A stretch of DNA of 64,000 nt from Kiritimatiellia bacterium (GTDB lineage: Bacteria; Verrucomicrobiota; Kiritimatiellia; RFP12; UBA1067), in NCBI GenBank assembly GCA_045595285.1, contig JAZOAC010000132.1, forward strand, positions 456-64,455, given 5' to 3'. The stretch's first letter is position 1. Each line of letters opens with the position of its first letter. Shown one piece after another: positions 6,019 to 32,175 of the stretch. Below the pieces are notes generated by a model. That model worked only from the letters and a program-made list of their open reading frames with translations. It ran no database searches and was not told where the DNA came from. A program made the position numbers and the translations under genes.

Positions 6019-6094
6019 TGCAAATTGTTATGGTGACGAAGTGGTTGCTCCGTCTATGTCCGTTTTACTGAGTTATTGAGTTCTTCCTTTCATT
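6019..6094. repeat. TA-cassette 3' repeat, copy 1 (block A plus partial block B)
   Basis: tgcaaattgttatggtgacgaagtggttgctccgtctatgtccgttt (6019-6065) is near-identical to 7664-7710. ttcttcctttcatt at 6081-6094 matches block B. Confidence 0.85.
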
Positions 6095-6117
6095 ATTCAG
6101 TTCTTCAGATTTTGAAA

Positions 6118-6486
6118 TCATCCTAACACTTTACGCGCTTGAATATACGCGTCTAAACTTTTCAATTTCGGCAATGTCTCTGGAATAAAATTGACGAAGA
6201 CATCCCAAACATTCGCAAGGTCGATTCCGAAATATTGATGAATCAACACATCCCTGAACCCTGCCATCCCCGTCCAATCGATTTCAGGATGCGACATACG
6301 GAAATCGTCAGACAGATTTTTTGTCGCCTCTCCGGCGATTTCAAAACTTCGAACCACCGCATTGATCAACAATTTACTTTCGACAAAATCAGAATAATCC
6401 TTGCCCGATAGAAAATCAACCACATCCTGTAGTGAATCTGCAATATGCAATATGTATATACCGTCTGTCCGCTCAGTCTTGCTCAT
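6118..6486 (-). CDS. hepT: HepT-like HEPN ribonuclease toxin (DUF86)
   Basis: RX4HXY motif FRDVLIHQYF; AVVRSFEIAGEA; HPEIDW. Overlaps the mntA stop. Confidence 0.9.
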   Translation of the reverse strand: MSKTERTDGIYILHIADSLQDVVDFLSGKDYSDFVESKLLINAVVRSFEIAGEATKNLSDDFRMSHPEIDWTGMAGFRDVLIHQYFGIDLANVWDVFVNFIPETLPKLKSLDAYIQARKVLG

Positions 6487-6773
6487 ATCGCCACCGACTC
6501 CAACAAAACCTGATTCTGTATATACGGATGTATTCCGCGAGTCGAAACAACATCCACCTTTCGACCCAAAAAATCCCGCAATGCATTCATCAAATGGACA
6601 TGAGAAAGAAGCGACGACCCTTCGCCAAATTCAACCAGAAAATCGACGTCGCTCTCCGGCGTTTCCTCTTTACGTGCACACGAACCGAACACCCAAAGCT
6701 TTTCGGCTTTGTGCGCCCTTGCGACAGCGTAAATCTCATCGCGCTTCGCACGTATCTCGTCAAGCATGCACAT
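6483..6773 (-). CDS. mntA: MntA-like minimal nucleotidyltransferase antitoxin
   Basis: FGSCARKEETPESDVDFLV (GSX10DXD) and GRKVDVV. Confidence 0.9.
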   Translation of the reverse strand: MCMLDEIRAKRDEIYAVARAHKAEKLWVFGSCARKEETPESDVDFLVEFGEGSSLLSHVHLMNALRDFLGRKVDVVSTRGIHPYIQNQVLLESVAI

Positions 6774-6829
6774 ACTGCTATTTCATCCTTAAAGCGCCGT
6801 TATTATACTCCTTTTGACTGCATAGCGCA

Positions 6830-6860
6830 ACTCACGCCCTCCGACTCACGCCCTCCGACT
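6830..6860. repeat. 14-bp tandem repeat x2 (actcacgccctccg)
   Basis: Seen directly at 6830-6843 and 6844-6857. Confidence 0.8.
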
Positions 6861-6948
6861 TATCTTTACATTTCGCTAAAATATCCGGGATATTGGACTT
6901 GTCAAGCGATGAAAAGGCGAAACACTTTTTGCCGAGATGGTTGTGTAA

Positions 6949-7030
6949 TGTTGCCAATGTGGTAATGTTGCCAATGTGGTAGTGTTGCCAATGTGGTAGT
7001 GTTGCCAATTGCCAATGTTGCCAATTGCCA
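6949..7030. repeat. 17-bp tandem repeat (tgttgccaatgtggtaR x3 plus tgccaat fragments), 3' flank of the four-helix-bundle gene
   Basis: Units at 6949, 6966 and 6983, with partial units from 7000 to 7030. Confidence 0.9.
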
Positions 7031-7032
7031 TT

Positions 7033-7386
7033 TTAGCCCCCAATCTTTTTCTTCGCCGTTGTCACGCTCGCTGACAGAATGCGGGACAACTCCTTGGATT
7101 CAGCTATTAAGTCACTCAGCCTCGTAATTTCAATATATCCTGATTCTCCAATTAACTTCAACCATATGCGAGTTTCCGATAATTCCTTCATTGCAATCTT
7201 CAGCTTATGCACAAAATCTTTTGAAGATTCTGCCTCACATGCCTCCGCATAATTTGCAGCGATACTTGTTGCAGAGCGAAACATCTGATCTGCAAAATTT
7301 GCACTTCCAACCAATTTGACAGGTAGCAACGCGCAAGTCTTGACGCACTGTGCCGCAAATTTAACAATTCTATCTTCAAGTAACAT
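7033..7386 (-). CDS. Four helix bundle protein (23S rRNA-IVS/bAvd-like family)
   Basis: DQMFRSATSIAANYAEA...ESSKDFVHKLKIAMKELSETRIWL is the canonical family pattern. Confidence 0.92.
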   Translation of the reverse strand: MLLEDRIVKFAAQCVKTCALLPVKLVGSANFADQMFRSATSIAANYAEACEAESSKDFVHKLKIAMKELSETRIWLKLIGESGYIEITRLSDLIAESKELSRILSASVTTAKKKIGG

Positions 7387-7547
7387 TATGCCGCCCTCCC
7401 CATTGGAAATTGGACTTGGGAAGTGGCAACACTATCACATTGGCAACATTTCACTTCATCAAGCATAACCTGAACGCCGCGAATCGTGAAGATTCGCGAA
7501 CGTATCAAATCTGAGTTTGATAATTCCTGTATGGTCAGCTCGTTCAT
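7386..7547 (-). pseudogene. Truncated ORF6N-domain gene (MNELTIQELSNSDLIRSRIFTIRGVQVMLD...)
   Basis: IRSRIFTIRGVQVMLD matches the start of ORF6N. The frame then runs into the inverted repeat and stops in a TAATG overlap with the four-helix-bundle start. TGATATAAT lies at about 7579-7587. Confidence 0.7.
7424..7450. repeat. 27-bp inverted copy of the 6964-6990 repeat
   Basis: The reverse complement aatgttgccaatgtgatagtgttgcca differs from 6964-6990 at one base. Confidence 0.9.
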
Positions 7548-7663
7548 ACCCTATAAGATTACCGCAAGAAACGCTTGAATTATATCATTTTTTGCCACGG
7601 CAATGATCGAGGTCTTAAGAGGTCTTAATAAAATCTGCTCGTGCCCGTACTTTTTATCTCTGT

Positions 7664-7751
7664 TGCAAATTGTTATGGTGACGAAGCGGTTGCTCCGCCT
7701 ATATTCGTTTCAATCAGTCCTCTTTTCTTCCTTTCATTGTCTGGCTGCTGA
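7664..7751. repeat. TA-cassette 3' repeat, copy 2 (blocks A+B)
   Basis: Block A at 7664-7710. Block B caatcagtcctcttttcttcctttcattgtctggctgctga at 7711-7751. Ends 1 nt from the HEPN stop. Confidence 0.9.
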
Positions 7752-7752
7752 C

Positions 7753-8148
7753 TTAAATGAATTCATCCATGTTATCTGGTAATAGAGGTTCTTTTGGCAA
7801 TAATTCAACAATCGGCTTAAGTAACTCATCCAATATTGGCAAATCATAGCTGATTGCATTCCACACAATATCAAGATCGATATTTGCATAGTCATGAACG
7901 AGACGATGTCTAAGCCCCGCCCATCCAGCAAAATCAATCTCAGGATGTTCTGCACAAAAGGCATCCGAAATATTGTTTGCCGCCTCCCCTAAAACCTGCA
8001 AGTTGTAAATAATCAATTCTGTGCAATCATCACCTTCACGCATCATTGAGCGCTCCAAGCCTTCCATTTTAGACTTGATTCGTTCAACTGTACGCATCAT
8101 ATGCAAAAGACGATCCTCGTCTCTATAATTAGCGCCGCCACTTCTCAT
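7753..8148 (-). CDS. hepT: HepT-like HEPN ribonuclease toxin (DUF86), second copy
   Basis: LRHRLVHDY (RX4HXY), LQVLGEAA, HPEIDF. The ATG at 8148 overlaps the mntA TGA. Confidence 0.9.
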   Translation of the reverse strand: MRSGGANYRDEDRLLHMMRTVERIKSKMEGLERSMMREGDDCTELIIYNLQVLGEAANNISDAFCAEHPEIDFAGWAGLRHRLVHDYANIDLDIVWNAISYDLPILDELLKPIVELLPKEPLLPDNMDEFI

Positions 8149-8441
8149 ACAGCAACCGCCTCCCGACAAACTCGATTGGCAAAACGAGGAGAACTGCGCA
8201 AAACACCGGTAGAAACAACATCTACGCTACGTCCGAGAAGCAAAGAACAAAAGTCCTCAATCGCAGCGTAATCTCTATGACTAACATCCTTACCGAACTT
8301 CACCAAAAAATCCACGTCGCTTTCAGGAGTTTCCTCTTTGCGTGCGCACGAACCGAACACCCAAAGCTTTTCGGCTTTGTGCGCCCTTGCGACAGCGTAA
8401 ATCTCATCGCGCTTCGCCCGTATCTCGTCAAGCATACACAT
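8145..8441 (-). CDS. mntA: MntA-like nucleotidyltransferase antitoxin, second copy
   Basis: First 47 aa identical to 6483..6773. C-terminal half divergent. Confidence 0.9.
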   Translation of the reverse strand: MCMLDEIRAKRDEIYAVARAHKAEKLWVFGSCARKEETPESDVDFLVKFGKDVSHRDYAAIEDFCSLLLGRSVDVVSTGVLRSSPRFANRVCREAVAV

Positions 8442-8636
8442 GATTTTTATCTGTAAAACGCCGTTATTATACTTCTTTTCCGCTCTCTACGCAACCGGAA
8501 CAGGCATTGCCAAGGCTGGGGCAGATAGGGCGGAGGCGCGGCGACTTTCGAGGTGGTGCGGCGCATTCTGTTCACCTCTGAAATGCTCAATGCGAGTTTT
8601 ACAGTGTAAATTGCCAATCTCGAGAACCAGACAAAT

Positions 8637-9698
8637 TCAGGAGGCGGTGGATTCGCGGACGATGAGCGTTGTATCCAGAAGAATCTGCCGCGGCGGCAGA
8701 TCGGGATTCTTTATGCGCTCCAGCAAGGTGCGAAACGCCGTGGTCGCCAGATCGAAGCAGGGTTGACGGATAGAGGTCAAGGCCGGCTTCATCCTGCCGG
8801 CTTCGACAACATCGTCGAAACCGGCAAGCTTGACATCCCGCGGAATGCGCACTTTCAGCCTGGCAAGCGTTCTAGAAAGTTTCAATGCCGCGAGATCGTT
8901 GGAACAGACGATCGCATCCGGGCGATACGCGGCCAATCCGGCAGCTATCAAACCGACATCGGCAGGCTTCGCCTCGATTATATCCACATGTCGGCCGGTG
9001 ACGCGGTAGACTTCCGCGTCCACGCCCGCAAAACGCGCATGAACGCTGTCGGCGCTGAGTTTGTAGAGCAGGCAGCATATCCTTTTCGCCCCCGCATCGA
9101 TCAGATGCGCCGCGACCTTGCGTCCGGCATTGAAGTTGTCGATCGCGACAAGATCGTACTTGCTTCGCGCAGGCGGAGGAAGGATATCGTAGTCTATCAG
9201 AACAACCGGTATGCCAGCTTTGTCGAGTATGTCGGCGATTACCTCGTTTACGCTCTGCGCCTCTTTCGAATAAGCGACCGGCTGCATGATCACGCCTGCC
9301 GCAGGAATCGAAACCAAATGTCGTGCAAGACGTTCCGCCTGTAGACCGCGAGGTTTGTGAGCTACCGGAAACACATCTCCGGCCACAAGATCCATCCCGT
9401 ATTGATTGCAGTTGCAGACTAGGCCTTCCATAACCGCGGAAAAGAACTCCGAATCCGCAGTTCCCGGAATCGCAAGCCCGATTGTGCGGTTCACCTTCGA
9501 CACAAAAGTGCCTGACCCCTTCCGCACCGTGACAAGGCCAAGACGCCTCAGCTCTGCAATGCTGCGCACCGCGCTTGGACGCGAAACACCAAAGCGCCGC
9601 ACTATCTTTGTAAGACTGGGAAACGCGTCGGAATCCGAATAGATACCGGCGTGAATCTCATCGCGCAAAACCTTCGCAATCTCGATATAGTCAATCAT
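8637..9698 (-). CDS. GntR-HTH / LacI-type sugar-binding transcriptional regulator (AraR-like)
   Basis: FPSLTKIVRRFGVSRPSA...RKGSGTFV; C-terminal PDAIVCSND...VRIPRDVKLAGFDD...LTSIRQP...LIVREST. Confidence 0.9.
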   Translation of the reverse strand: MIDYIEIAKVLRDEIHAGIYSDSDAFPSLTKIVRRFGVSRPSAVRSIAELRRLGLVTVRKGSGTFVSKVNRTIGLAIPGTADSEFFSAVMEGLVCNCNQYGMDLVAGDVFPVAHKPRGLQAERLARHLVSIPAAGVIMQPVAYSKEAQSVNEVIADILDKAGIPVVLIDYDILPPPARSKYDLVAIDNFNAGRKVAAHLIDAGAKRICCLLYKLSADSVHARFAGVDAEVYRVTGRHVDIIEAKPADVGLIAAGLAAYRPDAIVCSNDLAALKLSRTLARLKVRIPRDVKLAGFDDVVEAGRMKPALTSIRQPCFDLATTAFRTLLERIKNPDLPPRQILLDTTLIVRESTAS

Positions 9699-9736
9699 CG
9701 CATGAAAAGCACCTAAAACAGACTCTTTACCAATCT

Positions 9737-9808
9737 CAATCAGTCCTCTTTTCTTCCTTTCATTGTCTGGTTGCTGATATGAAAATCAAAAATATCATCT
9801 TACTTCGC
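9737..9808. repeat. TA-cassette 3' repeat, copy 3 (block B plus extension)
   Basis: 72 nt identical to 11033-11104. Confidence 0.92.
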
Positions 9809-9958
9809 AACCGCTCCTTGCATCTGCCCATTGGCAAATTCAGGATGTGTCAAGCGCTGTTCTTCGAGCAATGCATCAAAGAACTCCCTGAACGACTTAT
9901 ATTTAGCCGCTATCGCATCCTTGATCGCCCTCAATTCCTTTGTTGCTTCAGTTTCCAT
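9800..9958 (-). CDS. Small protein (52 aa), paralog of the PIN-associated partner at 11096..11260
   Basis: Manual translation METEATKELRAIKDAIAAKYKSFREFFDALLEEQRLTHPEFANGQMQGAVAK. Below the ORF-track cutoff. Confidence 0.65.
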   Translation of the reverse strand: METEATKELRAIKDAIAAKYKSFREFFDALLEEQRLTHPEFANGQMQGAVAK

Positions 9959-10424
9959 AATCATATTTCTCTATTATTTCCGCTTTCAAAAAACTTATGC
10001 ACTTTAACGCCTCATGCGTACAAAAGCAAATCTGATGCGTCGGATACTTGAATTTTACCAAAGCCCAGAACGCTTCGCGGGAGATTACGCCGCTTACGAA
10101 ATCATTGACGTAATTCCAGACCGTATCATTCGCCATCGGGCCTTCAACGATATCGAAGTTATGTTCTTTCCCGCTGCGGCATTCGGCGATAAAATCGAGC
10201 CATTCATCCGTCATCGCATTGAACTTCTTAACCGACAACCCCTCGATAGTTTCAAATTCGTAATGGTTTATCACCGCGACAAGATTACGGTCTCGCTTCG
10301 CCCAGCGCTCAGCCTGCGCATAATTCGCCGTGCAATAAAACCCGAAACCGAAATCTTTGGCATAAACCGCTTTACGGATTTCAGGCTTTTTAACCTCAAC
10401 ATCACTGGCGTGGTAAAGTATCAT
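9948..10424 (-). CDS. DUF3990 family protein (predicted ADP-ribosyltransferase-like fold, putative toxin)
   Basis: MILYHAS...KDFGFGFYCT...QAERWA...EWLDFIAECR...DIVEGPMAND...HQICF. Confidence 0.8.
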   Translation of the reverse strand: MILYHASDVEVKKPEIRKAVYAKDFGFGFYCTANYAQAERWAKRDRNLVAVINHYEFETIEGLSVKKFNAMTDEWLDFIAECRSGKEHNFDIVEGPMANDTVWNYVNDFVSGVISREAFWALVKFKYPTHQICFCTHEALKCISFLKAEIIEKYDYGN

Positions 10425-10900
10425 TGCAATAACCTCCCCGCCTTATATGATTCCCACTGATAACTCGGGTTTTCAAAATAGACGCCATTGGCGAAATCGG
10501 AGATTTCATCAATGATAAAAGAGCTAAAAACCTTCCGAAACGGAGAGAGCATATCTGCAACGGTGATAATTGGCGCATCAGAGCGCCCCATTTCACTCTC
10601 GATTAGCGTCGAATACACGCGCCCGATTGATGTCGCTGTTGGAATTGAATACTTGCAGTTCGTTATCGTATCATAATCGCCGTTTTTAATTCCACAATCG
10701 GCTATAAGTTCATCCGACACCCTTTCAAACGGCAGGCAGTGATTCAAATCGGCATATTCAAGGTGGTGTTTAAGACAATCGTCATCCATCGCGGCGACAA
10801 TATCGCCGCGCTTATTATTCGTTTTACGCCCGACATACTCTACTAGCGAACAGACATAAAACAAATCATTCTTTTTCTTTTCGTCCAACACAAAACACAT
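10421..10900 (-). CDS. Partner of DUF3990 (DUF3791-like, putative antitoxin)
   Basis: NDLFYVCSLVEYVGRKT...HCLPFERVSDE...IGRVY. 4-nt overlap with DUF3990. Confidence 0.6.
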   Translation of the reverse strand: MCFVLDEKKKNDLFYVCSLVEYVGRKTNNKRGDIVAAMDDDCLKHHLEYADLNHCLPFERVSDELIADCGIKNGDYDTITNCKYSIPTATSIGRVYSTLIESEMGRSDAPIITVADMLSPFRKVFSSFIIDEISDFANGVYFENPSYQWESYKAGRLLQ

Positions 10901-11032
10901 TATAGCACTTTTCTTATTATAATCCCACTATGTGATCCAAACACATTTAAGGAGCTTCTTCCTGCTACTTCCTGTGCGGAAAATCTGTTTTCGCTCCGCC
11001 AAAACGCCACACGCTTCAACGAAACCTTGTTT

Positions 11033-11104
11033 CAATCAGTCCTCTTTTCTTCCTTTCATTGTCTGGTTGCTGATATGAAAATCAAAAATATCATCTTACT
11101 TCGC
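11033..11104. repeat. TA-cassette 3' repeat, copy 4
   Basis: Identical to 9737-9808. Preceded by gttt, as in copy 2. Confidence 0.92.
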
Positions 11105-11260
11105 CGCCGCTTCCATCGTCGGTCCATTGGCAAATTCAGGATGATGTTCTGCCTGATACTTGAGAAGATCTTGAAAATAATCATGAAATGATTTATATCC
11201 AGATGAAAGTTCTTCCTTGATCTTCCAAAGTTCTTCCATTATTTCAGACTTCAATTCCAT
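11096..11260 (-). CDS. Small PIN-associated partner protein (54 aa, putative antitoxin)
   Basis: Manual translation MELKSEIMEELWKIKEELSSGYKSFHDYFQDLLKYQAEHHPEFANGPTMEAAAK. SD GGAGG upstream, 1 nt after the PIN stop. Confidence 0.7.
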   Translation of the reverse strand: MELKSEIMEELWKIKEELSSGYKSFHDYFQDLLKYQAEHHPEFANGPTMEAAAK

Positions 11261-11261
11261 T

Positions 11262-11747
11262 TCATACCTCCTTCATCAATTGTTCGGGCGTACAGATCAA
11301 TGGACACGCAAAACCATTAACCTTGCATGTTTCATATATCTTGGGCATCGTCTCACCATTTGCAATATGTCGACAATTCCATGTGACAAGAAAATCCATC
11401 CTGTTCACAGCCGCTATTGCAATATGAACAGCATCCTCATAACTTGTTCTCGGAACAGCCGTCGCTTCAAGCAATTTCTCTGCCAGATTCTCTGCTTCAG
11501 GTATAATAGGTAATTTCTCCAAACGAGCAACAGCCTCCATCCTTCGAGCGGCAGCATCCGCGTCACCTCTTTGTGCCTCACGCTCTACAAGAACAGAGGA
11601 AAAAAGCTCATAAGACGTCTCGGCATCATCCCACCATTGCTGCGTAGCGACTTGACGGGCAAGATCAACAATATTAAGCGACCGCCGCGCGGTCAGGTTG
11701 CTGACCACGCTCGTTTCGACATAAACTTTTTTCTTTGCTTCCGCCAT
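11262..11747 (-). CDS. PIN-domain (VapC-like) toxin
   Basis: KVYVETSVV...EDAVHIAIA...DFLVTWNCRHIAN...ICTPEQL. Start placed at MAEAKKK. TATAAT at 11773-11778. Confidence 0.88.
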   Translation of the reverse strand: MAEAKKKVYVETSVVSNLTARRSLNIVDLARQVATQQWWDDAETSYELFSSVLVEREAQRGDADAAARRMEAVARLEKLPIIPEAENLAEKLLEATAVPRTSYEDAVHIAIAAVNRMDFLVTWNCRHIANGETMPKIYETCKVNGFACPLICTPEQLMKEV

Positions 11748-12009
11748 ACAATCCTCTCGAAATATCGCTACTATTATACATCTTTTCATTGCCGCACGCA
11801 ACGACGCAGGCCCTCACCGCTCCCGAGGAAAGTTCTACAATGTCGTGAGTCAAATCGGAAAGCCGGATTGTCGAGGTGGAGACAAGAGGCGAAATGGGAA
11901 AACGATAGAGATCGAAAGAGGAGGGAGAAGAGAAAAAGGAAGGTATGCGCCCCCTCGGGGGCATCGCGCCAAAAAAAGGAGACTTGAAAAGGCGGCCTCG
12001 AAACCGGGG

Positions 12010-12910
12010 TTATCTTATCAGCACTTTAAACCCTGTTTCCTTGAACGTCACGGTCAATGTGGATGTGCCCGATCCGGCGTCATCAACAATATCCCGCGAC
12101 ATATGCACCGACACAAGCCCCTGCGGTTTCTTGATGTCTAGCTTGGCAAACACATCGTCTGCGATTTCCGATTTCACGGTCATCACCCCCATCGACAGAG
12201 CCTCCTTTGCACCGGTTGCACCGGACACCAACCGCACCGGAACTTTCGTCATGCCTCCGGCGAGCGACAGGGCAAGCGGCGAGGAAGTCCTGTCGTTTCT
12301 CAATCCGTATGTCTTGAGGGATGCATCATCTGTGTCCATATCAAGCTCAATTGCCACATCAACACCCGTTACGGAGTTGGAGAACACAAGATCAAGTCCA
12401 TTGAACGCATCGGCCGAAAGCGGTTTCAGGACACCGCCCTGAACATAGAGCGTGCGGTTGATGGCATCATCCGGCGGCAGATCCGCAAGCGCACCTTCCG
12501 CATCGAGAAACTTCAACTCGCCGCCCATGGCAAGCGTACCCGCCCCTTGCTTATAGACGCAGCCGTTTACGGTGACCGGCTGCAGAAGCGTCAGCGAATC
12601 TCCCGCTGCCGGCGTTTCAAGCTGAGCTATGCCGGAAAGGAACAACCCGCGGGTCCTATCGGTGAACTCAACCTTGTTTGTGGTGATGAGCCGCGGCATC
12701 TTCGCCCTTCCACCAGAATTTCACCTCGCCATAGCCGCCCTGCCTGTTCATCTGCAAGCGCGTCACCGTAGCCTTGCCGGAGGAAACCTTCATCACCGCC
12801 GCAACGATCTGGTTCGTCATTGCATATATGCCCGCATCAACTGTTGGATATACATTGCTTCCCATACCTCCGAGAATCCGCCGCGAGCCGCGCTCGACAA
12901 ACAGCTTCAC
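12010..12910 (-). pseudogene. 5'-truncated, frameshifted remnant of a large secreted beta-strand-repeat protein ending GFKVLIR
   Basis: 12010..12699 aligns with the C-terminal ~200 aa of 32195..34660 (RGL, KxGxGTL, ADxxxGL, YGxRNxxT, GVMTVxSxIA). 12668..12910 joins it through a frameshift near 12715. No signal peptide. Confidence 0.65.
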
Positions 12911-13093
12911 CCCGAATGCCGCCTACCCCATTGCATTCTTGCGTCCGCCCGATCACACCCATCCCGCCCTTCCAAATCCTCACTACCCAAACGATCAATC
13001 ACAGCAATCAATACCCCGCGCTTCTTCAACGATTCCTACCACCCATTTACCCGATAGGCGCGCCATCAAAAACCATTGCCGAAACACCCAGAT

Positions 13094-13135
13094 GTCATCA
13101 ATTCTCACAAATTATAATTTGTGAGAATTGATGAC
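13094..13135. repeat. Perfect 42-bp palindrome
   Basis: gtcatcaattctcacaaatta|taatttgtgagaattgatgac. Contains the TAA of the ArsR gene at its centre. Confidence 0.95.
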
Positions 13136-13684
13136 CGCAAATTTCAGGAATGCATTGGCGAACCTTTCTTCTTGGGGCACAGCCAAGACGGTTGCATTCA
13201 CCGATAATTTGGCAAAACCAAGGGCCGTCAATTCACCGACAATGCGGTAGCAGGTCTTTATCGGCATGAACGAGCGTTCCGCAAGGACTTCGACAGAAAT
13301 CTCGCCGTCTTTGTTCAGCACTGAAAGAATTGCCGTCTTACGGGCATTGGAGAATGCCGGCAAAACGGCAAGCACCCTATCCTTCCAAGCTGGCGCCTCT
13401 ATGATGCTCTCGAGCTCGTCGACAAGGCGCATAAACTCCCGAGCGCCGTCACGCCGCCGTTCATAGAATACATTCTTGCCGCGCCGCACCGCAACAATGA
13501 ACCCCTGCACATTGAGCATGCGCAGATATTGACTGGTGACCGATTCCTTCTCGTCAACGGCGGCACTTATGTCACTCACCGAAACAGGGTGACTGGAAAG
13601 CATCACCGTACGAAGCATCTCAAGGCGAATCGGATTGTCCAACGCTCGACTCACTCTCCATGGTATAGGTACATATTCTTGCAT
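13112..13684 (-). CDS. Tandem winged-HTH protein, ArsR-like
   Basis: ALDNPIRLEML...SQYLRML...GFIVAVRRGKNVFY, plus a second wHTH AFSNARKTAIL...ISVEVLAE. ATG at 13684. Confidence 0.8.
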   Translation of the reverse strand: MQEYVPIPWRVSRALDNPIRLEMLRTVMLSSHPVSVSDISAAVDEKESVTSQYLRMLNVQGFIVAVRRGKNVFYERRRDGAREFMRLVDELESIIEAPAWKDRVLAVLPAFSNARKTAILSVLNKDGEISVEVLAERSFMPIKTCYRIVGELTALGFAKLSVNATVLAVPQEERFANAFLKFAVINSHKL

Positions 13685-13720
13685 GAAAGAAATTAAACCA
13701 AAACACAGAACCAAACGCAA

Positions 13721-13758
13721 GCTCAATTCTCACAAATTATAATTTGTGAGAATTGAGC
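13721..13758. repeat. Perfect 38-bp palindrome sharing a 32-bp core with 13094-13135
   Basis: gctcaattctcacaaatta|taatttgtgagaattgagc. Confidence 0.95.
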
Positions 13759-14166
13759 ACAGAACGTGAGGGATGACCAGATCCCGAAAATGAGAATTCG
13801 ATTCGGAACAATTCTCTCGCTTCTAATGTAATGAGGCCGCGGGATGATGAGAATATGGTTTGGACTGATTCTCAAGATTACGGTTTCTGAGAGGATTAGC
13901 AAGATTACGGCTCGGACGAAATCTTATGTATCTCTAAAAAAAAAACGCTATTTCACAAAACCACCAGAATCACAAGCGAAATTACCACTCTTTTCAGGGT
14001 CCCACCCCAATTATTCGTTCCCGAATTTCAGGCGGAACGCAAGCGGTTCTTCTTCGGTCTTCCGGAAATCGGCGTCTGCATGTCTCGGACAGGGTGAAAT
14101 TGTCGAGAATGTCAGCGCCGAGCGGGACAAGAATCACCTGAATTGCACAAAAAGCCAACTTGAAAA

Positions 14167-15003
14167 TCACGGCTTCTTCGAGACCTCGACAAACTTACCG
14201 TCCCTCAATTCGAAGAAATCAAGGCGAACACGAGGAGGATTGTTGACAGGATCCTTGCGCCAGGCTCGCATGTTTCCTCCCAGAGCCCGGACTGCAAAAA
14301 ACACTTTTGCATCGGACTTGGCCACGGATTTCGGGAGCATGTCAAAACCTTCGAAGCAGGAGAACGCGACAGTCTCCACTTCCTTCAGATCCCCGGTCAC
14401 ACGAGCCGTGCCGCCATAGCACCCAAAGAAAAGATACTTTCCGTCCGTTGCCATGGTCTGGACGCCGTAACGAATGTCAAATCCAAGATCAAGGTCAACA
14501 TTGTCCTTCTCTGCAAGATCAAGACCCAGACGCTTTACGCAGCACATAGGATGTTTGCCTTTACCCCATCTGTCTACACCGACATAAATGGTGTCGCCAA
14601 GCACTGCTATCCCGTCCAACGCCTCAGGAAACCACCTCTCGTCCAAAACATTGAGGTTTTCATCCCATACACGTACCAGTCCCTGCATGCCGTCTTTGCG
14701 CAGCTTTTTATTGCGTATCACAAAAGCGCCGTATATCTTCCCGTTGGCATAGGCCGTGTCGCCAAGATGGGCAGGAGTCTCAATTGTCTTGATAAGCTTG
14801 CCGTCCCAGCCAATCTTCGCAATGCCAAGCTGATGCGAAAGATACACCCCCTGTTCTGAACAGCATGCCCCCTGGACGTGACCGGCCTTTATGAGCATAT
14901 CCAGTTCATGCGGTACGGTGTATACCGGAGCCATACTGAATCCAGAGAAAACCTGCAGATGCGCAAACAACAGGGTAAACACGACAGCAACTTTACTGTT
15001 CAT
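14167..15003 (-). CDS. Secreted hypothetical protein (possible beta-propeller)
   Basis: Signal peptide MNSKVAVVFTLLFAHLQVFS. Beta-rich repeats such as HLGD, LDGIAV and GVQTMATDG. Confidence 0.65.
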   Translation of the reverse strand: MNSKVAVVFTLLFAHLQVFSGFSMAPVYTVPHELDMLIKAGHVQGACCSEQGVYLSHQLGIAKIGWDGKLIKTIETPAHLGDTAYANGKIYGAFVIRNKKLRKDGMQGLVRVWDENLNVLDERWFPEALDGIAVLGDTIYVGVDRWGKGKHPMCCVKRLGLDLAEKDNVDLDLGFDIRYGVQTMATDGKYLFFGCYGGTARVTGDLKEVETVAFSCFEGFDMLPKSVAKSDAKVFFAVRALGGNMRAWRKDPVNNPPRVRLDFFELRDGKFVEVSKKP

Positions 15004-15055
15004 AATCGCGCGTCCTTCTTTATGGTACACCGCAACCCGATTGCGTATCCTGGAA

Positions 15056-17167
15056 TCATCTTAACACGATTACGGTACCCTTCACATTGATCTTCTCCGG
15101 ATTTCCGACCGTTGAAAACCCAGGATCGCTCTGCATCGCATAATCGGCTGAAACCCAGGCGACATCCGATGGAGCGGCGCGCAGACGCATCTCATCCATC
15201 CAGCCCGGGAATGGGGTGTTGCTGGCGTCGCCCTTGCCCAGAAAAAGAGCGTTCGCAGTATTTGTGGGGGCATAGTTTGCCGATTTGATATGCGTTCCGT
15301 TGATGTACAGAGCCACCCCGCCACCGGAATAGGTTGCTGAAAGATAGACAAAATCATTTGTGCTGTCAAACGCCGTGTTGGCGCACTTCATCTGCTTATT
15401 GCCACTCGGGGTGTGGGTGGCCACATTATACGACAACGGCGATTCCATCAAGGTCAGCTCGAAACTCTGCGCCACGGAAAAGACCCGCGGATTCTTTTCC
15501 CCAAACGGCAAGGCCTTAACCCATGCAGACATTGTGAAGTTGCTTATGTCAAAGGTTTCGTGGTTGATGGGCGTAGTCTCGATATAGTCATAGTCCTGCC
15601 AACGAATTTCCGTACCGTCGCTTTTGTGCGTACCATCTCCGAAAAACGCCGTTCCAATCTTCCCCGGATCGGAAAGTCTGGGTCCCGCCCCGTTCACAGT
15701 TCCATCCATGCCCGCGCCCGACGAGTCCGCCGCCGATCCGGAGAAGTGCCATACGCCTATGTAATTTGCCTGAGACCAAACGGACGTCTCCGGAAGCGCC
15801 TGCGCCGCCGAAGCGTTCGGCCTATAGTACATCCACAGCGTAGATGGCGACGGGACGAACGCATCCAACCGCACCCATACGGTAGATTCGCCTTCCGGAT
15901 TCCAGCAATCAACCTCATGCGGTAGCACAAAGCCGTTATCATCCGTAAAACGCAGATCGTTTTCTGCATCGGCGCATTCGCTGTACACCGGCGAACCTTG
16001 CGGAATGCGTATCAGAACCGGAAACGAATAAAGAATCTTATCTACACCGCTGCCCTTGATTGAAACACTGCATCTGCGGCGGAAATTCTCGGCGTCAATC
16101 AACTGAGTCCTGTCTATGTCCTCCAATTCGCCGACATCGGCAAAATTCGGATCGTTCTGGGTTGCATAGTCAGCCGCCACCCAATCCGCGTTTGACGCAA
16201 CAAATCTCAGACGCATTTCATCCATATAGCCTCTAAAGGAAGAGGCGTATCTGTTTGGATAGCTGCCGAGCCTCAAATCGTTTTCCGACGGCGTCACAGA
16301 GAAACCAGAAGCCTCACGGCCTTCATACTCGCCATTCACATACAGGTCGCAGCCTCCATCCCGGAAGACAGCCGTCAAATAAACATAGTCCACGGTGCAG
16401 TACTTAGTTGTCTCCTTTTTATACTGTTCAGTGGCGCCGACCGCCGTATAGGTATTGGCATTCTTCACCTGCAATCCGAAGCCCGTTGTCTGATTAGACG
16501 GATCGTTTTTGTTGCAAAATACATATCGGGCCCCTTCAATAACCTGGATACCTGATTTAACCCATGCGGACAAAGTGAAATTAGTTCCGTTGAAATCCCC
16601 TGAGTTTATGACTCCGGTTTTGACGCAATCGTTGCCGTCTCCGTAAAATGCAGTGCCGACCTTGCCTCCCGCACTGAAGGACGGCTCGCCCACATTGGTC
16701 GACGCCATTGCGCTGGGCGAGGAGTCCGCCGCCGATCCGGAGAAGTGCCATACGCCGGCATAATTCGATTTGCCCCACACTTCGGTAGATTGTGCAGAAG
16801 ACTGTCCAATGCCGCCGACATACATCACTATTCTGGACGACGCGCCGCCAAGAACCGGTACGTTCACCCAGACCGTCGACTCACCGTCCAGATTCCATAC
16901 GTCAATCTCATGGGGTAGGAGATTCCCGGATGCATCGGCGAAGCAGATGTTTGCGGAATCGCCGGCCGTTGCGGAATGGATGGCCGAATCCGACGGTATG
17001 CGCAACAGAACCGGAAAATCACGAAGCTCCGAACCGCCCGTGTAGCCCGGAAACGTTACATTGCATTTCCAGCGGAACAGCGTCGTATCGACCTTCTCCG
17101 CCTGCGCCTGACGGCAGATTCCCACCGCCGCCAATGCCATGAACACAGCTGCCAATGTTTTCTTCAT
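15056..17167 (-). CDS. Secreted protein with two DUF2341 + LamG/concanavalin-like modules, ending GTVIVLR
   Basis: Signal peptide. FPVLxRIP...LPHExDxWNxxGESTVWV occurs twice, as do GVWHFSGSAADSS and GxMDEMRLR...WVxADYAxQ. Confidence 0.85.
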   Translation of the reverse strand: MKKTLAAVFMALAAVGICRQAQAEKVDTTLFRWKCNVTFPGYTGGSELRDFPVLLRIPSDSAIHSATAGDSANICFADASGNLLPHEIDVWNLDGESTVWVNVPVLGGASSRIVMYVGGIGQSSAQSTEVWGKSNYAGVWHFSGSAADSSPSAMASTNVGEPSFSAGGKVGTAFYGDGNDCVKTGVINSGDFNGTNFTLSAWVKSGIQVIEGARYVFCNKNDPSNQTTGFGLQVKNANTYTAVGATEQYKKETTKYCTVDYVYLTAVFRDGGCDLYVNGEYEGREASGFSVTPSENDLRLGSYPNRYASSFRGYMDEMRLRFVASNADWVAADYATQNDPNFADVGELEDIDRTQLIDAENFRRRCSVSIKGSGVDKILYSFPVLIRIPQGSPVYSECADAENDLRFTDDNGFVLPHEVDCWNPEGESTVWVRLDAFVPSPSTLWMYYRPNASAAQALPETSVWSQANYIGVWHFSGSAADSSGAGMDGTVNGAGPRLSDPGKIGTAFFGDGTHKSDGTEIRWQDYDYIETTPINHETFDISNFTMSAWVKALPFGEKNPRVFSVAQSFELTLMESPLSYNVATHTPSGNKQMKCANTAFDSTNDFVYLSATYSGGGVALYINGTHIKSANYAPTNTANALFLGKGDASNTPFPGWMDEMRLRAAPSDVAWVSADYAMQSDPGFSTVGNPEKINVKGTVIVLR

Positions 17168-17209
17168 AATGATTCTCCGTTTTCATCAGTTCAGGTTGAC
17201 GATAAATAC

Positions 17210-20200
17210 CTAGTTCGATGCATCTGAAGAGCTCACGAAAAGGGTCCCCCACGTCGACGGAGTGTGCGGGACGCCATTTTGCCACCCAAACGCCCCGCAT
17301 TTCGCGTTCCTGTCGGGGAGTCCAAGCGAAACCCTTTCGAAAAAACGGAGCTGCGGATTGACGTTCGGCTCAAACTGCAGGGATGAGAACGGAATGACGA
17401 CAATGGCGCGCCAGCCTTCCTGGGTCTTTTCGACACGGCTCTCCCACTTGCAGTCCTTGCTCCCATCCGAAACGACCGCTTTGTTGCGGGTGCCGTCCGC
17501 CGCCAGCATGAAGTGCCGGTAGGAAGCCCGGTCCGCCTCGAAAAACAGTTCTATGAAATCCCCAGTCGAGCAGGCGTTGCGGTCCGAAGTGGAATGCGTC
17601 ACGACGGGCAGTCCGCCCTTCTTCACGTCAATGCCGAGGACGAGTTCCCGTTCGTTCGCATAGATGCGCGTATTGACGCCGGCGGTTTCAGGGATGGCGG
17701 CAGGGCGTATGCGGGTGAAGCCCGTCAACGACGTACCCCGCGACCACGGCTTCCCGTGGAACATGTCGAAATGCGGCTTTTTCGGCGTACCCGTGAAACG
17801 GACGCGCGTTTCGACCTGTTTGTATTTGGGCGATTCGTCGATCCACATCTCAAGGATGCGCTGCATGGATGCAATCCATTTTCTACGCTCTTCGCAATCC
17901 GCTTTCGCAAAGGCCGCTTTCAGCGCTTCCCGGCACTTGTCGGATATTCCGTTCTGGACTATGTAGATCGATGCCATTCGGAACGGATTGTCGCAGAAGC
18001 CTGACGAGATGCTGTTGGAGTACCATGACCTGCGCACCTCGCCATAGAAACGCCCTACATCACCGGCGGCAGGGCCGAACGTACGCGAAAGGAATTCCCT
18101 GCGCAATGCCGCCGGGTCAAGGGACGGATTCCAGAAGAGCCGCTCGACAACCCAAGCCTCCATCGCATTCATGTCGTAGAATTCGGATCTGGGGCGCATT
18201 ACTCCCTTTGCATTGGCCCCCTGCATCACTTCGTCATCGGATTCGACAATAGGCGCATATACGTATTTCCCTCCTTTTTCAAGGAAGTAGCGCAGGTCGA
18301 CTGCGGCGGTGTCGGCCATCGGCCTGGGGAAGAACAGGTTTCCGCACCAGTAGTACTCCCTGAGTCCGATCTCCGCACCGCTTGCAAGCCAGCCGTCGAG
18401 CTTTTCCCTCCAGCGGCGATTGGTCGAACCTTCCACAAACGATTCGCGCATGTTACGCGGATAGGGGCAGAAGCGGACTATGATGTTCTTCTCGAGCTTG
18501 ATGCGCGGAGCGTCGGTAAGGTGGTAGTATCCGTGGACTATGGCCTTCGCGCCTGGACGGACCGCCGCCACGCGCCGGGCGACCTGGTTGTAGAACCGGA
18601 AAAAGCGCGTCGAACGGTAGGCCGGATCGCCAGCCTCAAGGAACGTTCCGTCATCCAGGCGTATCGGCTTCTGGCACTCGTCGCACTGGCATGTAAGCAC
18701 ACGGTCCTCTATCGTGATGTTTATCAGCTTGATGTCGCGCGGCACGGATGGCATCTTCCGTTCGACGGCATCGCAGAACGCCTTGACGAATCCAGGATTG
18801 CTTTCGCAGAAATTCATCTTCCCGCCCGTCCAGCGCTTGCCGTCGATCATCATGCGGTATTCCGGATGGTCGGGACATTCCGTCTTCGGGAACCACACCT
18901 TCTGCATGTTGTGTCCGCGGCCGCCGCCCCAGTAATCCTTGTGACATCCGATCATGCCGTACCGCACCGCAAGGGTGCGATGCTCCAGACGGGTGCCGCG
19001 ATCATGCAGCGACGTATCGCCGTTGCGCACCCTGTAGCGCCAGATTTCCGGCAGTTTCGAGCCCGAACCCAATGTCCGCCTGAGGAATGCGGGAATGTCC
19101 ACATACTCGTCCTGAAGTCCCTTCCATCCGTCCGGCGCCGGACGCTTCGTGTAGAAGCAAAGGTCGCCGCCGGGCCTTGGCCAAATGATATCGGTATGCC
19201 GCTCCAGCCACTTGTGGACACCATTGACGAGTCCCTTGGGATTTGCCGCAACAAAGTTCAGCACGCCGTCCCTCCATCTTACGGCATATCCGTCAGTCCC
19301 TTCCAGACGATTCCAGTCGGCGGCGAACAGACCATTCTCCGAAGGCAGCCGGAAACGGACGGGCGGAGCGGAACCGAAAACCTTCGTCGCAAAGTTGGTG
19401 AACTCCTCATGCGCCCATTCGACGGCCGGATGGCTCGACATAGGATAATCGAACGACCAGAACTTCTCGGGAGAGAGAAACACGTGCCCGACAATCCCCG
19501 TAATGTCGAACATCCAATCTTCAAGAAGGCCTTTCTCCGCCTTTTTGAATACGGCCTTCCAGAGTCCGGCATCGGCCCCCGCCTGCTCGATATGCCCCTT
19601 CCAGGCAAACACGGACGGACAGTTGTATACGCTCCGGCCCGTCGAGGAGACCAGCTCGACTCCTATGGCTTCGCTGCCGTCACCCGAAACAAAGAATCCG
19701 AACTCCGGCGCATATTCCGGAACGGAGAAATACAACTCTCCCTGAGAGCCGATGGCCGCACACCAGTCAGACGTAAGATCGGCAGCAATGGGAGCAGCGC
19801 ACTCAAGAAGCGACAGCTGCAGGCCGATGCGCCTTGAGTCAAGGAAATAGAAGCCCGCCCTGGGCGCATCGAACTTCAGCGTCTCCACGTCCTTCCCCGG
19901 CAAAGGGACGGAAGCAATAATCTTGCCGTCAACATCGGAAAATTCCACTTCCCCGGATACGGCGCGGGAATATCTGCCGATGGGATTTTGCCTCCACTTG
20001 AACTTTATGGTTCTGGCGCGATCGGCATAGAATACAAACCGCAACTGATGACGGAAACGGATTGGCGAGAGCTTGACCATCTCGCCAGGACGGGAGTCTG
20101 AAACCCTGGCCCGGGAGAAATCCGGAGCAGGCTTAACGGTCGGAACCTTATTCTTCGCCGAAAGGAACGGAAGGTTTCTGACAACCCATTCGTCATCAAC

Positions 20201-31360: not shown

Positions 31361-32175
31361 TGGGTCAGCGATGCGCCCTCCTGAGGCGCGTAGACTCCGT
31401 CCATCATGCCGTCGGCATAGGTGACGGACAGCATGCTGCCATCAACGCGCTTGGTATTGTCGAATCCCCTCAACGCATCGGAGTCGGCGATTATTTCGCT
31501 ATACTCCGCCACGGGATCGGCAAAGCGCCTTTCCCACTGCAGATCCCGCAGCCCCACAAGTTCAAGCGCCAGCCGCTTCACCGGCGCGCCCTTGTGCTCA
31601 GCCACGAGCGGTATCCGGTCCATCTCCGTTATGTCTATCAGGAATGGATGCGCGATCTCCACCGACCCTGTCGACATGAATACGCCGAATTTGAACTGCA
31701 CCTTCCCGACAAGCTCCTCGGTCACGTCTATCGGGCGGTACAGAATACTCCACCTGTCTCCGCCGCCGCCAAGCTGCGCCTTTATCTCCGGCCTGAGATA
31801 CCCGTCGAGGCAGCTGTTGAAACCGCCAAGAAGATATACCCTATTGTTGTAAGGCTTGTCCTTTTTCGTACGTCCATAGCTCCACAGCAGCACAGGCGCC
31901 TTGTCCCGCCTGACCCATGCGCCGTAAAGATAGCGGTGCCCGGTCTTAAGCGACACTTCCTGCCGCCAGAACGCCGACAGTGGCACACGGGACGTGATCT
32001 TCCATACCGGCTCCTCGGCCGTGAACGGTCCGCCCTTCGACTTCTCCCATGTGAAGCCTCTGCGGTCGGAATTATCCACTCTGTTTTCCCATTTCCTGTC
32101 CTTGAACAGGTTCGCCTCCGTCTTCAGCACAGACGGATACAGCAGCGCCGCCAGCAACAACCAACTCATGATCAT
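31357..32175 (-). CDS. Secreted hypothetical protein (CBM-like beta sandwich)
   Basis: Signal peptide. WRQEVSLKTGHRYLYGAWVR. Confidence 0.55.
   Translation of the reverse strand: MIMSWLLLAALLYPSVLKTEANLFKDRKWENRVDNSDRRGFTWEKSKGGPFTAEEPVWKITSRVPLSAFWRQEVSLKTGHRYLYGAWVRRDKAPVLLWSYGRTKKDKPYNNRVYLLGGFNSCLDGYLRPEIKAQLGGGGDRWSILYRPIDVTEELVGKVQFKFGVFMSTGSVEIAHPFLIDITEMDRIPLVAEHKGAPVKRLALELVGLRDLQWERRFADPVAEYSEIIADSDALRGFDNTKRVDGSMLSVTYADGMMDGVYAPQEGASLTH

Follow-up and report, generated by a model that had tools for sequence, protein, structure and literature searches.

Why should a bacterial gene for a small DNA-binding protein be enclosed between two long, perfect palindromes? This question is raised by a 64,000-nucleotide stretch of contig C132 (positions 456–64455) from the 3.8-Mb assembly of a gut Kiritimatiellae bacterium. 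(We call this whole stretch the window, and positions refer to it unless a contig is named.) The gene lies on the minus strand at 13112–13684, with its ATG at 13684 and its stop codon (TAA) at 13114–13112, and encodes a tandem winged-helix protein of 190 amino acids. The initial annotation of this DNA offered two explanations: a gene cassette that is moved by recombination at the palindromes, or twin operator-promoters that control the gene and its downstream neighbor. We conclude that the arrangement is probably regulatory and not mobile. More specifically, we give a probability of about 70% to the reading that the gene encodes a tandem winged-helix repressor that regulates its own expression from two operators, one on either side of the gene, that acts by looping or as a roadblock, and that has a small regulon.

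The palindrome at the stop codon (13094–13135) is 42 bp long and consists of a 34-bp core, TCAATTCTCACAAATTATAATTTGTGAGAATTGA, extended by GTCA on one side and TGAC on the other. The palindrome upstream of the gene (13721–13758) is 38 bp long and has the same core, extended by GC on either side. Neither is assigned to a strand; both are spacer-less, and their arms (21+21 nt at the stop codon and 19+19 nt upstream) are 100% complementary. The two cores are spaced 625 bp apart. The upstream palindrome has its dyad 55 nt 5′ of the ATG and its edge 36 nt 5′ of the ATG. In the 42-mer, the center of symmetry is located between the final sense codon and the TAA, so one arm of the palindrome encodes the tail of the protein (V-I-N-S-H-K-L) and the stop codon. 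The initial annotation had described the 42-bp palindrome at the stop codon correctly; it had also described a perfect 38-bp palindrome upstream, which is present but at 36 rather than 37 nt from the ATG, and its shared core of 32 bp proved to be two base pairs too short.

The core had no match in 100 dinucleotide shuffles of the window. Across the 3.8-Mb genome there are 18 spacer-less perfect palindromes with arms of at least 10 nt, as compared to 10 in a shuffled genome, and the two copies in the window are the longest of the 18. The next longest, tied at 17-nt arms, are two perfect solo copies of the same palindrome (described below) and three sites that belong to another, second family of palindromes, ACCGCATTTTGCAAAATGCGGT. 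According to the HMM for the gene's family, the gene is the sole family member in this genome, and there is no paralogue for the second palindrome family.

Because the same pair of palindromes recurs in more than 10 independent assemblies (at locus L012, in genomes G401 and G404, at L005–L011 from seven JGI samples, and at L085–L087), we ruled out an assembly artefact. The 38-mer upstream of the gene is identical in L012, L013, and L014. The outer extension of the symmetry is found in the window, in L012, and in L005, whose protein is 76% identical to ours and whose stop-codon palindrome is a perfect 44-bp version with a compensatory pair of changes (T>C and A>G). At L013 and L014, the palindrome at the stop codon has one mismatch (a synonymous change of CAC to CAT) and is not extended. 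The claim that each copy stays perfectly symmetric thus holds for the window, L012, and L005, but not for these two loci.

The protein itself has the makings of a transcription factor. An AlphaFold2 model built with 23 homologues (pLDDT 93, pTM 0.85) has two complete winged-helix domains. Domain 1 (residues ~8–95) is an ArsR/SmtB-like winged helix, with helices at 8–15, 18–29, 36–43, and 47–59, strands at 63–68 and 71–76, and a final helix at 82–95. Using Foldseek, this domain matches HlyU, NolR, and SmtB at an rmsd of 2.5–3 Å over 85 residues, and a profile search links it to HlyU (E = 5.6e-7) and NolR (E = 1.2e-4), so it belongs with ArsR/SmtB by both fold and sequence similarity. Domain 2 (residues ~100–185) is a second winged helix of the HTH_24/MarR/AsnC type. 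The Pfam results refer to a 204-residue reading, as an in-frame TTG at 13726 would extend the protein by 14 residues; 14 should be subtracted to place them on the 190-residue protein. In that numbering, HTH_24 is above the cut-off at 129–171, and the N-terminal HTH region at 31–78 is of the HTH_5/IclR type, with HTH_5 at 31–77 falling just below the cut-off (21.2 versus 22 bits). The initial description of a "double ArsR" gene is therefore apt for domain 1 but not for domain 2, which is a different kind of winged helix. Only HTH families were identified by Pfam, and neither Pfam nor Foldseek indicated a catalytic or enzyme fold. The best full-length match in Foldseek is the transcription factor PF0095 (E = 3.2e-4, probability 1.00).

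On inspection of the sequence, domain 1 has neither the α3 CxC motif nor the α5 His/Asp/Glu cluster with which ArsR/SmtB proteins sense metals or metalloids: there is no cysteine in α3 (VSVSDISAAV) and no histidine in α5 (GAREFMRLVDELES). The domain appears to resemble the non-metal members of the family, and because the metal-site motifs are absent, as they are in those members, we cannot propose a ligand for the protein. The dN/dS ratio of 0.15 relative to L005 indicates that the gene is under purifying selection.

The bracketed layout is a family trait, and it recurs in distant relatives across the class. An exhaustive profile search at E ≤ 1e-10 yielded 254 clusters (at 50% identity); among the best 150 matches of these 254 clusters, most are full length (~185–205 amino acids). 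At least one family member is present in 113 of 401 Kiritimatiellae genomes, and often there are several, while a scan of metagenome contigs added 5 loci only. In the close subfamily (52–96% identity), all of the complete loci are bracketed by CAATTCTCAYAWATTATAATWTRTGAGAATTG-type palindromes. The center of the upstream palindrome is 48–49 nt before the N-terminus throughout the subfamily, and the downstream palindrome is at the stop codon or 20–26 nt past it. We also considered 29 distant homologues (24–35% identity) from other families of the class. Palindromes are on both sides of the gene at 12 of these loci, only upstream at six (often as two palindromes, 54–100 bp apart), only downstream at six, and absent at five. 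Overall, 24 of 29 have a palindrome on at least one side, versus a chance expectation of ~0.002 per locus (based on the 10 such palindromes in the shuffled 3.8-Mb genome). When there is an upstream site, it is at -20 to -40 from the N-terminus in most, though not all, of the distant homologues, and the center of the downstream palindrome is 18 to 36 nt past the stop codon. A cognate palindrome near the start of its own gene, at a position that is kept among homologues, is as expected for an autoregulated repressor.

Two sites per locus are the rule in the family. The sites are spaced by ~600–640 bp at most bracketed loci, by up to ~830 bp at others, or by 54–100 bp. In loop-forming repressors of the lambda CI, LacI, GalR, and DeoR type, an oligomer cooperatively binds two or more separated operators, as this protein might. 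The sites share a core of CACA-N10-TGTG across the family, mostly as CACACTTTGCAAAGTGTG or TTTATAAA. Each locus has outer arms of its own, which agree between its two copies, and at several loci both copies carry one identical asymmetry. The bases at the dyad vary across the family and include TTTGCAAA, TTTATAAA, CCTGCAGG, TTCGAA, and others; TATAAT at the dyad is peculiar to the subfamily of the window gene.

The genes around these loci vary. No neighboring gene (such as a toxin, transporter, or recombinase) was conserved among 22 loci (BLASTP at 1e-5). The downstream genes are unrelated between loci and are sometimes convergent; they include what we take, from their sequences, to be MnmG-, DUF1848-, and DUF2961-like proteins. 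In four other genus-level comparisons, orthologues of the gene are in regions that are syntenic over 5–10 kb.

We infer that each palindrome is the putative binding site of the protein whose gene it adjoins, and the two do vary together. Across 34 loci, half-site identity rises from 0.57 for pairs with under 40% protein identity to 0.77 for pairs with 60–80% identity, in a comparison that does not separate function from kinship. For pairs with under 70% protein identity, the Spearman correlation is 0.33, a value that was reached in 0 of 2,000 label permutations. The CACA/TGTG core is 86% conserved across the 34 loci, the inner five positions of the half-site co-vary with the protein (rho = 0.45), and the outer arms (positions 10–14) show no correlation with overall protein similarity. 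At most loci whose protein has an aromatic residue before the conserved arginine of the second recognition helix, the site has TGTG or TATG and then A/G-A/G-A. The L042 site has the purine-rich motif without the aromatic residue. A link between the aromatic residue and a purine-rich stretch after TGTG is suggestive only. As the co-variation of palindrome and protein is confounded by shared ancestry, it may be taken as support for recognition, not as proof.

How might such a repressor work? We propose that the protein is a transcription factor that acts on its own, has two winged-helix domains in each chain, and would bind the 34-bp palindrome as a symmetric dimer, with ~17 bp for each monomer. 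Each palindrome would then be contacted by four winged helices, two per half-site. One domain might read the family-wide CACA/TGTG, and the other might read the variable bases that flank it. In most sites the symmetry runs through the dyad, which fits a symmetric dimer on duplex DNA; a hairpin loop needs no symmetry. The upstream palindrome would be the primary operator, located over or just 3′ of the gene's own promoter, and its occupancy would lead to autorepression. The palindrome at the stop codon would be a second, cooperating operator, and the two bound dimers could draw the intervening 625-bp gene into a loop. Another possibility is that the complex at the stop codon is a roadblock or insulator, or that this site is the operator of the next unit (the leader and open reading frame described below). 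These roles of the downstream copy are tentative; its neighboring genes are unrelated between loci. DNA binding, the stoichiometry of the dimer, the assignment of domains to bases, repression, and the choice of looping or a roadblock are all deduced from sequences and models.

The proposal of twin operator-promoters fared differently for its two halves. The operators are supported by a layout that is retained at 24–35% identity, by the co-variation, and by the solo and doublet sites. The promoter half is weak: a sigma-70 scan found no -35 partner and called no promoter at either palindrome (the promoter consensus in this class may differ), and TATAAT is confined to one subfamily. We ruled out the TATAAT dyad as a family-wide promoter, given that the centers vary and that no -35 element was called. 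One feature counts against operators as well, which is that perfect symmetry over 34–48 bp exceeds that of most operators.

This genome contains six of the palindromes: the pair in the window and four solo copies. Two of the solo copies are perfect (C67:15777 and C114:20844), one has 2 mismatches (C112:406), and one has 4 mismatches (C79:236). If the palindromes are operators, then these four would be further operators, and the protein would have a small regulon made up of accessory DNA. Among the neighbors, a DUF4143 ATPase is encoded downstream of the C67 copy and also downstream of the L085 pair, and there is a weak DUF3800 match near the C114 copy. The C114 site has an orthologue in the sister species G401, where 34 of 34 positions of the palindrome are the same and 324 of 334 positions of the alignment are identical. 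Within the genus, this type of palindrome is found in 4 of 13 genomes (G000, G401, G404, and G403, with a single solo site in G403). Of these four, the gene search covered G000, G401, and G404 and confirmed the gene in each.

Beyond the genus, the 18-mer CACACTTTRYAAAGTGTG is present in 30 of the 401 genomes, with up to 25 copies per genome, as compared to 0 matches in the 401 genomes for the reversed 18-mer. In G073, most of the copies are intergenic (this genome is GC-rich, and its open reading frame calls are unreliable). Many of the sites in G073 form doublets, 85–88 bp from center to center, around AT-rich spacers. We considered whether the doublets might be MITEs, which is ruled out by the spacers not being homologous to each other. 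The doublets look instead like paired operators around promoters. Both the solo sites and the doublets are intergenic, and the genes on either side of them are convergent or divergent. Together, the conserved layout, the matched sites, and the solo and doublet copies suggest that twin operators are the better-supported explanation, relative to a cassette.

Abutting the upstream palindrome is E_R (13759–14016, plus strand), a dispersed intergenic repeat of ~240–260 nt; using nhmmer and blastn, we found 43–48 matching stretches in this genome, many of them at the ends of contigs. Copies of E_R usually lie 25–300 nt 3′ of the stop codon of a gene that reads toward the copy. Most copies have no palindrome, some have only the repeat-proximal half of one, and the window gene is embedded in a long form of the repeat. 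High copy numbers of E_R (48, 43, and 46) are confined to the three genomes of the genus in which the gene is present; each of the other ten has one copy or none. These three genomes are from close sister species, so this co-occurrence may reflect phylogeny. E_R also includes two copies of a 25-nt hairpin, GAGAAT-N13-ATTCTC, which occurs 65 times in the genome, and the hexamer GAGAAT is shared with the outer arm of the palindrome.

On the other side, between the palindrome at the stop codon and the next gene, is E_L (12933–13093, no strand assigned), a leader-like segment of ~160 nt that is 88% identical to C67:15811–15978 at a site with no gene. The next gene is a co-oriented open reading frame of 80 amino acids (MKLFVERG..., 12668–12910, minus strand) that has no match in Pfam and is cut short at ~12693–12699. 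A surface-protein-like fragment of 229 amino acids (12010–12699) begins where it breaks off. (The fragment and the truncated open reading frame are what the initial annotation called a decayed surface-protein gene.) Homology around this open reading frame ends at 12693 in the comparison with G401 and at 12888 in the comparison with G404. We also considered known RNA families, but with Rfam (E ≤ 1) the palindrome matched only miRNA hairpins, spuriously, and the sole other match was a weak one to a group II fragment at another position.

Could the palindromes instead be the ends of a mobile unit? On this account, the unit of palindrome, gene, and palindrome enters or leaves copies of the palindrome by recombination (either site-specific, through a recombinase acting in trans, or homologous between the 34-bp repeats), and a solo palindrome is an empty site. 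The initial annotation had suggested a search for empty sites with one palindrome, and C67 has one: the left and right flanks from the window are colinear there, on either side of a single palindrome and with no gene between them (~170 nt of the left flank at 88% identity and ~260 nt of the right flank at 80%). Given this empty-site paralogue, the motif does not occur only as a normal auto-operator with no empty sites, the outcome that the initial annotation had named as a refutation. Homology to L005, whose context is unrelated, is limited to the stretch between the outer edges of the two palindromes; close homologues are almost all on contigs of just 0.8–3 kb; and the module of repeat, palindrome, gene, palindrome, and leader has different outer neighbors in G000, G401, and G404. 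Mobility is thus also compatible with the paralogous empty site and with the rearranged and repeat-rich surroundings in this genus. The asymmetries that are shared by both copies at several loci are as expected of duplicated sites, and a gene for a serine resolvase is ~650 nt from the C67 copy. However, that resolvase adjoins only one of the six sites in this genome, no resolvase or invertase is near the pair in the window (as would be expected for a segment that is excised or inverted by a serine recombinase), the three tyrosine recombinases of this genome are all on other contigs and adjoin no copy, and no recombinase is linked to the gene family at 22 loci. The protein has no catalytic fold of its own. 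The C67 site is a paralogue of the window locus, not an allele, and it is more diverged from the window (80–88% identity) than the occupied loci of the sister species are from each other (93–94%); deletion between two 34-bp direct repeats would account for it equally well, with no special machinery. Mobility is also at odds with the synteny of orthologues over many kilobases in other genera, with the conservation of the C114 solo site at its orthologous position in G401, and with the many homologues that have both sites upstream, 54–100 bp apart, where there is nothing between them to carry. Similarly, the doublets in G073 enclose only an AT-rich spacer. Overall, we consider movement at the palindrome to be unlikely. 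A more specific version is about as unlikely: a minimal module that inserts into and excises from its own operator, with the protein as the site-recognition subunit for the recombination or repair machinery of the host, and tied to the burst of E_R in this genus. Two known kinds of element were rejected. An integron cassette would have an imperfect attC site with R″/R′ cores and an IntI integrase with attI nearby, whereas here both ends carry the same perfect palindrome and no tyrosine recombinase adjoins any copy; a protelomerase or hairpin telomere is ruled out as no protelomerase-like gene is associated.

Two other explanations would give the palindromes a role as hairpins or as selfish repeats. 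The pair might form one hairpin at the 5′ end of the mRNA and, at its 3′ end, a terminator or stabilizer, or be hairpin ligands of the protein, rather than operators in duplex DNA. Both palindromes are predicted to fold at about -27 kcal/mol (z of about -7 to -8), a T-rich tail comes after the upstream palindrome, which was called as terminator-like, and sites just 5′ of the start and 3′ of the stop would suit the ends of an mRNA. Also, winged helices can bind RNA hairpins, and SelB is among the fold matches from Foldseek. But the symmetry continues through what would be the loop, the CACA/TGTG core is kept across the family irrespective of the context of the stem, and mismatches between the arms have no bias toward G-U on the sense strand (T:C, T:T, A:A, and C:A are all seen). 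Hairpins in mRNA would not be expected at the solo and doublet sites, which are intergenic and among genes of all orientations, and two independent hairpins need not match each other, as the two copies at a locus do. RNA hairpins are the weaker explanation as compared to duplex operators, and we consider them to be very unlikely. A REPIN/RAYT-like selfish system, in which the bracketed gene spreads its palindromes or the E_R repeat, is more improbable still. The likeness is in the layout: a gene present in one copy has its own palindromic repeats on either side and further copies of them in intergenic regions, and it occurs together with its type of repeat. The location of the gene within the long form of E_R and the abundance of E_R only in the genomes that hold the gene would fit as well. 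RAYTs (Bertels and Rainey 2011, PMC3116915; PMC3337134) are HUH/Tyr transposases whose targets are imperfect, single-strand hairpins that number in the tens to hundreds. In contrast, the protein here is purely a tandem winged helix, with no catalytic domain and no HUH/Tyr motifs according to Pfam and Foldseek; its palindromes are perfect and of a duplex type; and there are only six of them here, while in none of the 401 genomes does the related type exceed 25 copies. Most copies of E_R have no palindrome, and its link to the gene may be phylogenetic, as discussed above.

If the protein is an autoregulated repressor, how does it compare to known ones? Its N-terminal domain is like the ArsR/SmtB proteins without metal sites (HlyU, NolR, and BigR), with matches to HlyU and NolR in both sequence and fold. 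Proteins of this type are dimeric, bind palindromic operators, and commonly regulate their own genes. The protein here differs in having a second and different winged helix in the same chain, in having a perfect site of ~34 bp (theirs are imperfect and of the 12-2-12 type), and in having its gene bracketed by two copies of the site. PF0095 from the archaeon Pyrococcus furiosus (PDB 2quf and 2qlz) is of similar length (214 versus 190 amino acids) and is presumably likewise built from a pair of winged-helix domains on a single chain. However, the domains are packed differently (TM-score 0.25–0.28, rmsd 16 Å, 17% identity), the protein here is bacterial, and we know of no bracketing palindromes for PF0095. 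A parallel for the layout is found in phages: in lambda, with OL and OR, and in 186, with its flanking sites, the gene for the CI repressor likewise lies between two operator regions to which that repressor binds. Work by Dodd and colleagues is said to have established that these operators cooperate by DNA looping, which tightens autoregulation. The lambda repressor has an HTH domain and a C-terminal oligomerization domain, and it binds three imperfect sites per operator in a prophage, where the 2.3-kb loop takes in further genes. In our case, the fold is different, the loci are chromosomal, and a single gene has one long perfect palindrome at either end.

The components of the proposed system are all well known. 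These are the ArsR-type winged helix, the operator with palindromic sequence, autoregulation, and the pairing of operators that is also seen with OL and OR of lambda CI. In the literature, we found nothing about palindromes in Kiritimatiellae, palindrome-binding repressors with tandem winged helices, or operators that bracket a gene. The combination of a family of tandem winged-helix proteins with long, perfect, and private palindromes, and with one operator at each end of the gene, thus appears to be undescribed. If the cassette were the correct explanation after all, then we would be dealing with a novel type of mobile unit, one that lacks an enzyme of its own. If our preferred reading of an autoregulated repressor is correct, then the Kiritimatiellae would have a large and uncharacterized family of tandem winged-helix regulators (at least ~250 clusters), each paired with a perfect operator that is unusually long and private to it. 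The family would favor an architecture of two cooperating sites, often with one at each end of the regulator's gene. The pairs of proteins and sites could be used to work out the recognition code of a two-domain reader, and they might provide orthogonal repressor-operator parts. The family would also be a natural test case for autoregulation by the looping or insulation of a whole gene.

The bracketed gene, which encodes the tandem winged-helix protein, is located in accessory, repeat-rich DNA, as indicated by an array of toxin-antitoxin-like genes (DUF3990, PIN, and others) at 6019-11801 of the window, which lies upstream, co-oriented, and on the same strand. Next to the upstream palindrome, at 13759-14016, is a copy of the dispersed repeat E_R. 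This repeat is 240-260 nt long and intergenic, and it has 43-48 matching stretches in the genome, on contigs C39, C95, C63, C67, C112, C79, and others, with many at contig ends. Copies usually lie 25-300 nt past the stop codon of a gene that reads toward the repeat. E_R is abundant in this genome (48 copies) and in the sister species G401 (43) and G404 (46); the remaining 10 genomes of the genus have a single copy or none. Within E_R copies, sub-blocks combine as mosaics.

With up to 3 mismatches allowed, the genome has 65 occurrences of a 25-nt hairpin motif, GAGAATATGGTTYGGACTRATTCTC, in many contexts. One is at 13848-13872, and examples among the other 64 are C113:115, C62:322, and C104:286. 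It often lies about 110-350 nt from a contig end, after the common sequence "...cgtttcactgctttgtccatagcgg...". This motif is REP-like, and it has the hexamer GAGAAT/ATTCTC in common with the outer arm of the window's palindrome.

On the downstream side, an 80-amino-acid ORF (MKLFVERG...; 12668-12910) breaks at about 12693-12699, and homology to G401 stops at the same point. The adjoining 229-amino-acid frame (12010-12699) looks like the C-terminal portion of a large beta-strand-repeat surface protein. The break probably marks where a rearrangement joined the two and is less likely to reflect slow decay.

Between the upstream palindrome and the putative ATG, 14 in-frame codons run from a TTG at 13726 (13685-13726), and the peptide they encode is partly conserved (..GLIS..) in the gene calls of several homologues. 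The start codon is uncertain, and so is the distance from operator to start.

The palindrome also occurs without the gene, on contig C67. There, the neighborhood (C67:12731-17693) comprises a 491-amino-acid protein, a 168-amino-acid resolvase-domain protein (14568-15131), E_R, the palindrome, the leader E_L, and an AAA_14+DUF4143 ATPase (16416-17693). An ATPase of this family also follows the bracketed gene in the metagenome locus L085.

In genome G073, TTCCACACTTTGCAAAGTGTGGAA-type palindromes form doublets 85-88 bp apart at three loci (L073, L075, and L078) and also at C13:48146/48234 and C13:70412/70499. The spacers are AT-rich and unrelated to one another, and the genome has 25 sites to 5 genes from the family. 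At the L037 / L060 homologue (G263:C12, around 31294-31746), each flank has a pair of differing palindromes, ATTCTCACTTATTATAATAAGTGAGAAT and ATTCTCACATATTATAATATGTGAGAAT, 87 bp apart, and the whole pattern recurs with a period of 789 bp. These palindromes are similar to the window's type even though the protein is only ~31% identical.

The genome also contains a second family of perfect palindromes, GTTACCACCGCATTTTGCAAAATGCGGTGGTAAC and variants (30-34 bp), at C123:10670, C162:5964 and 6061 (97 bp apart), C15:4614, and C144:14849. No cognate tandem winged-helix gene for this family was found in the assembly, which is 86% complete. Palindromes resembling those of this family are also present at homologue loci, one in L085, 133 nt upstream of the gene, and another in L083, which hints at cross-regulation by another paralogue.
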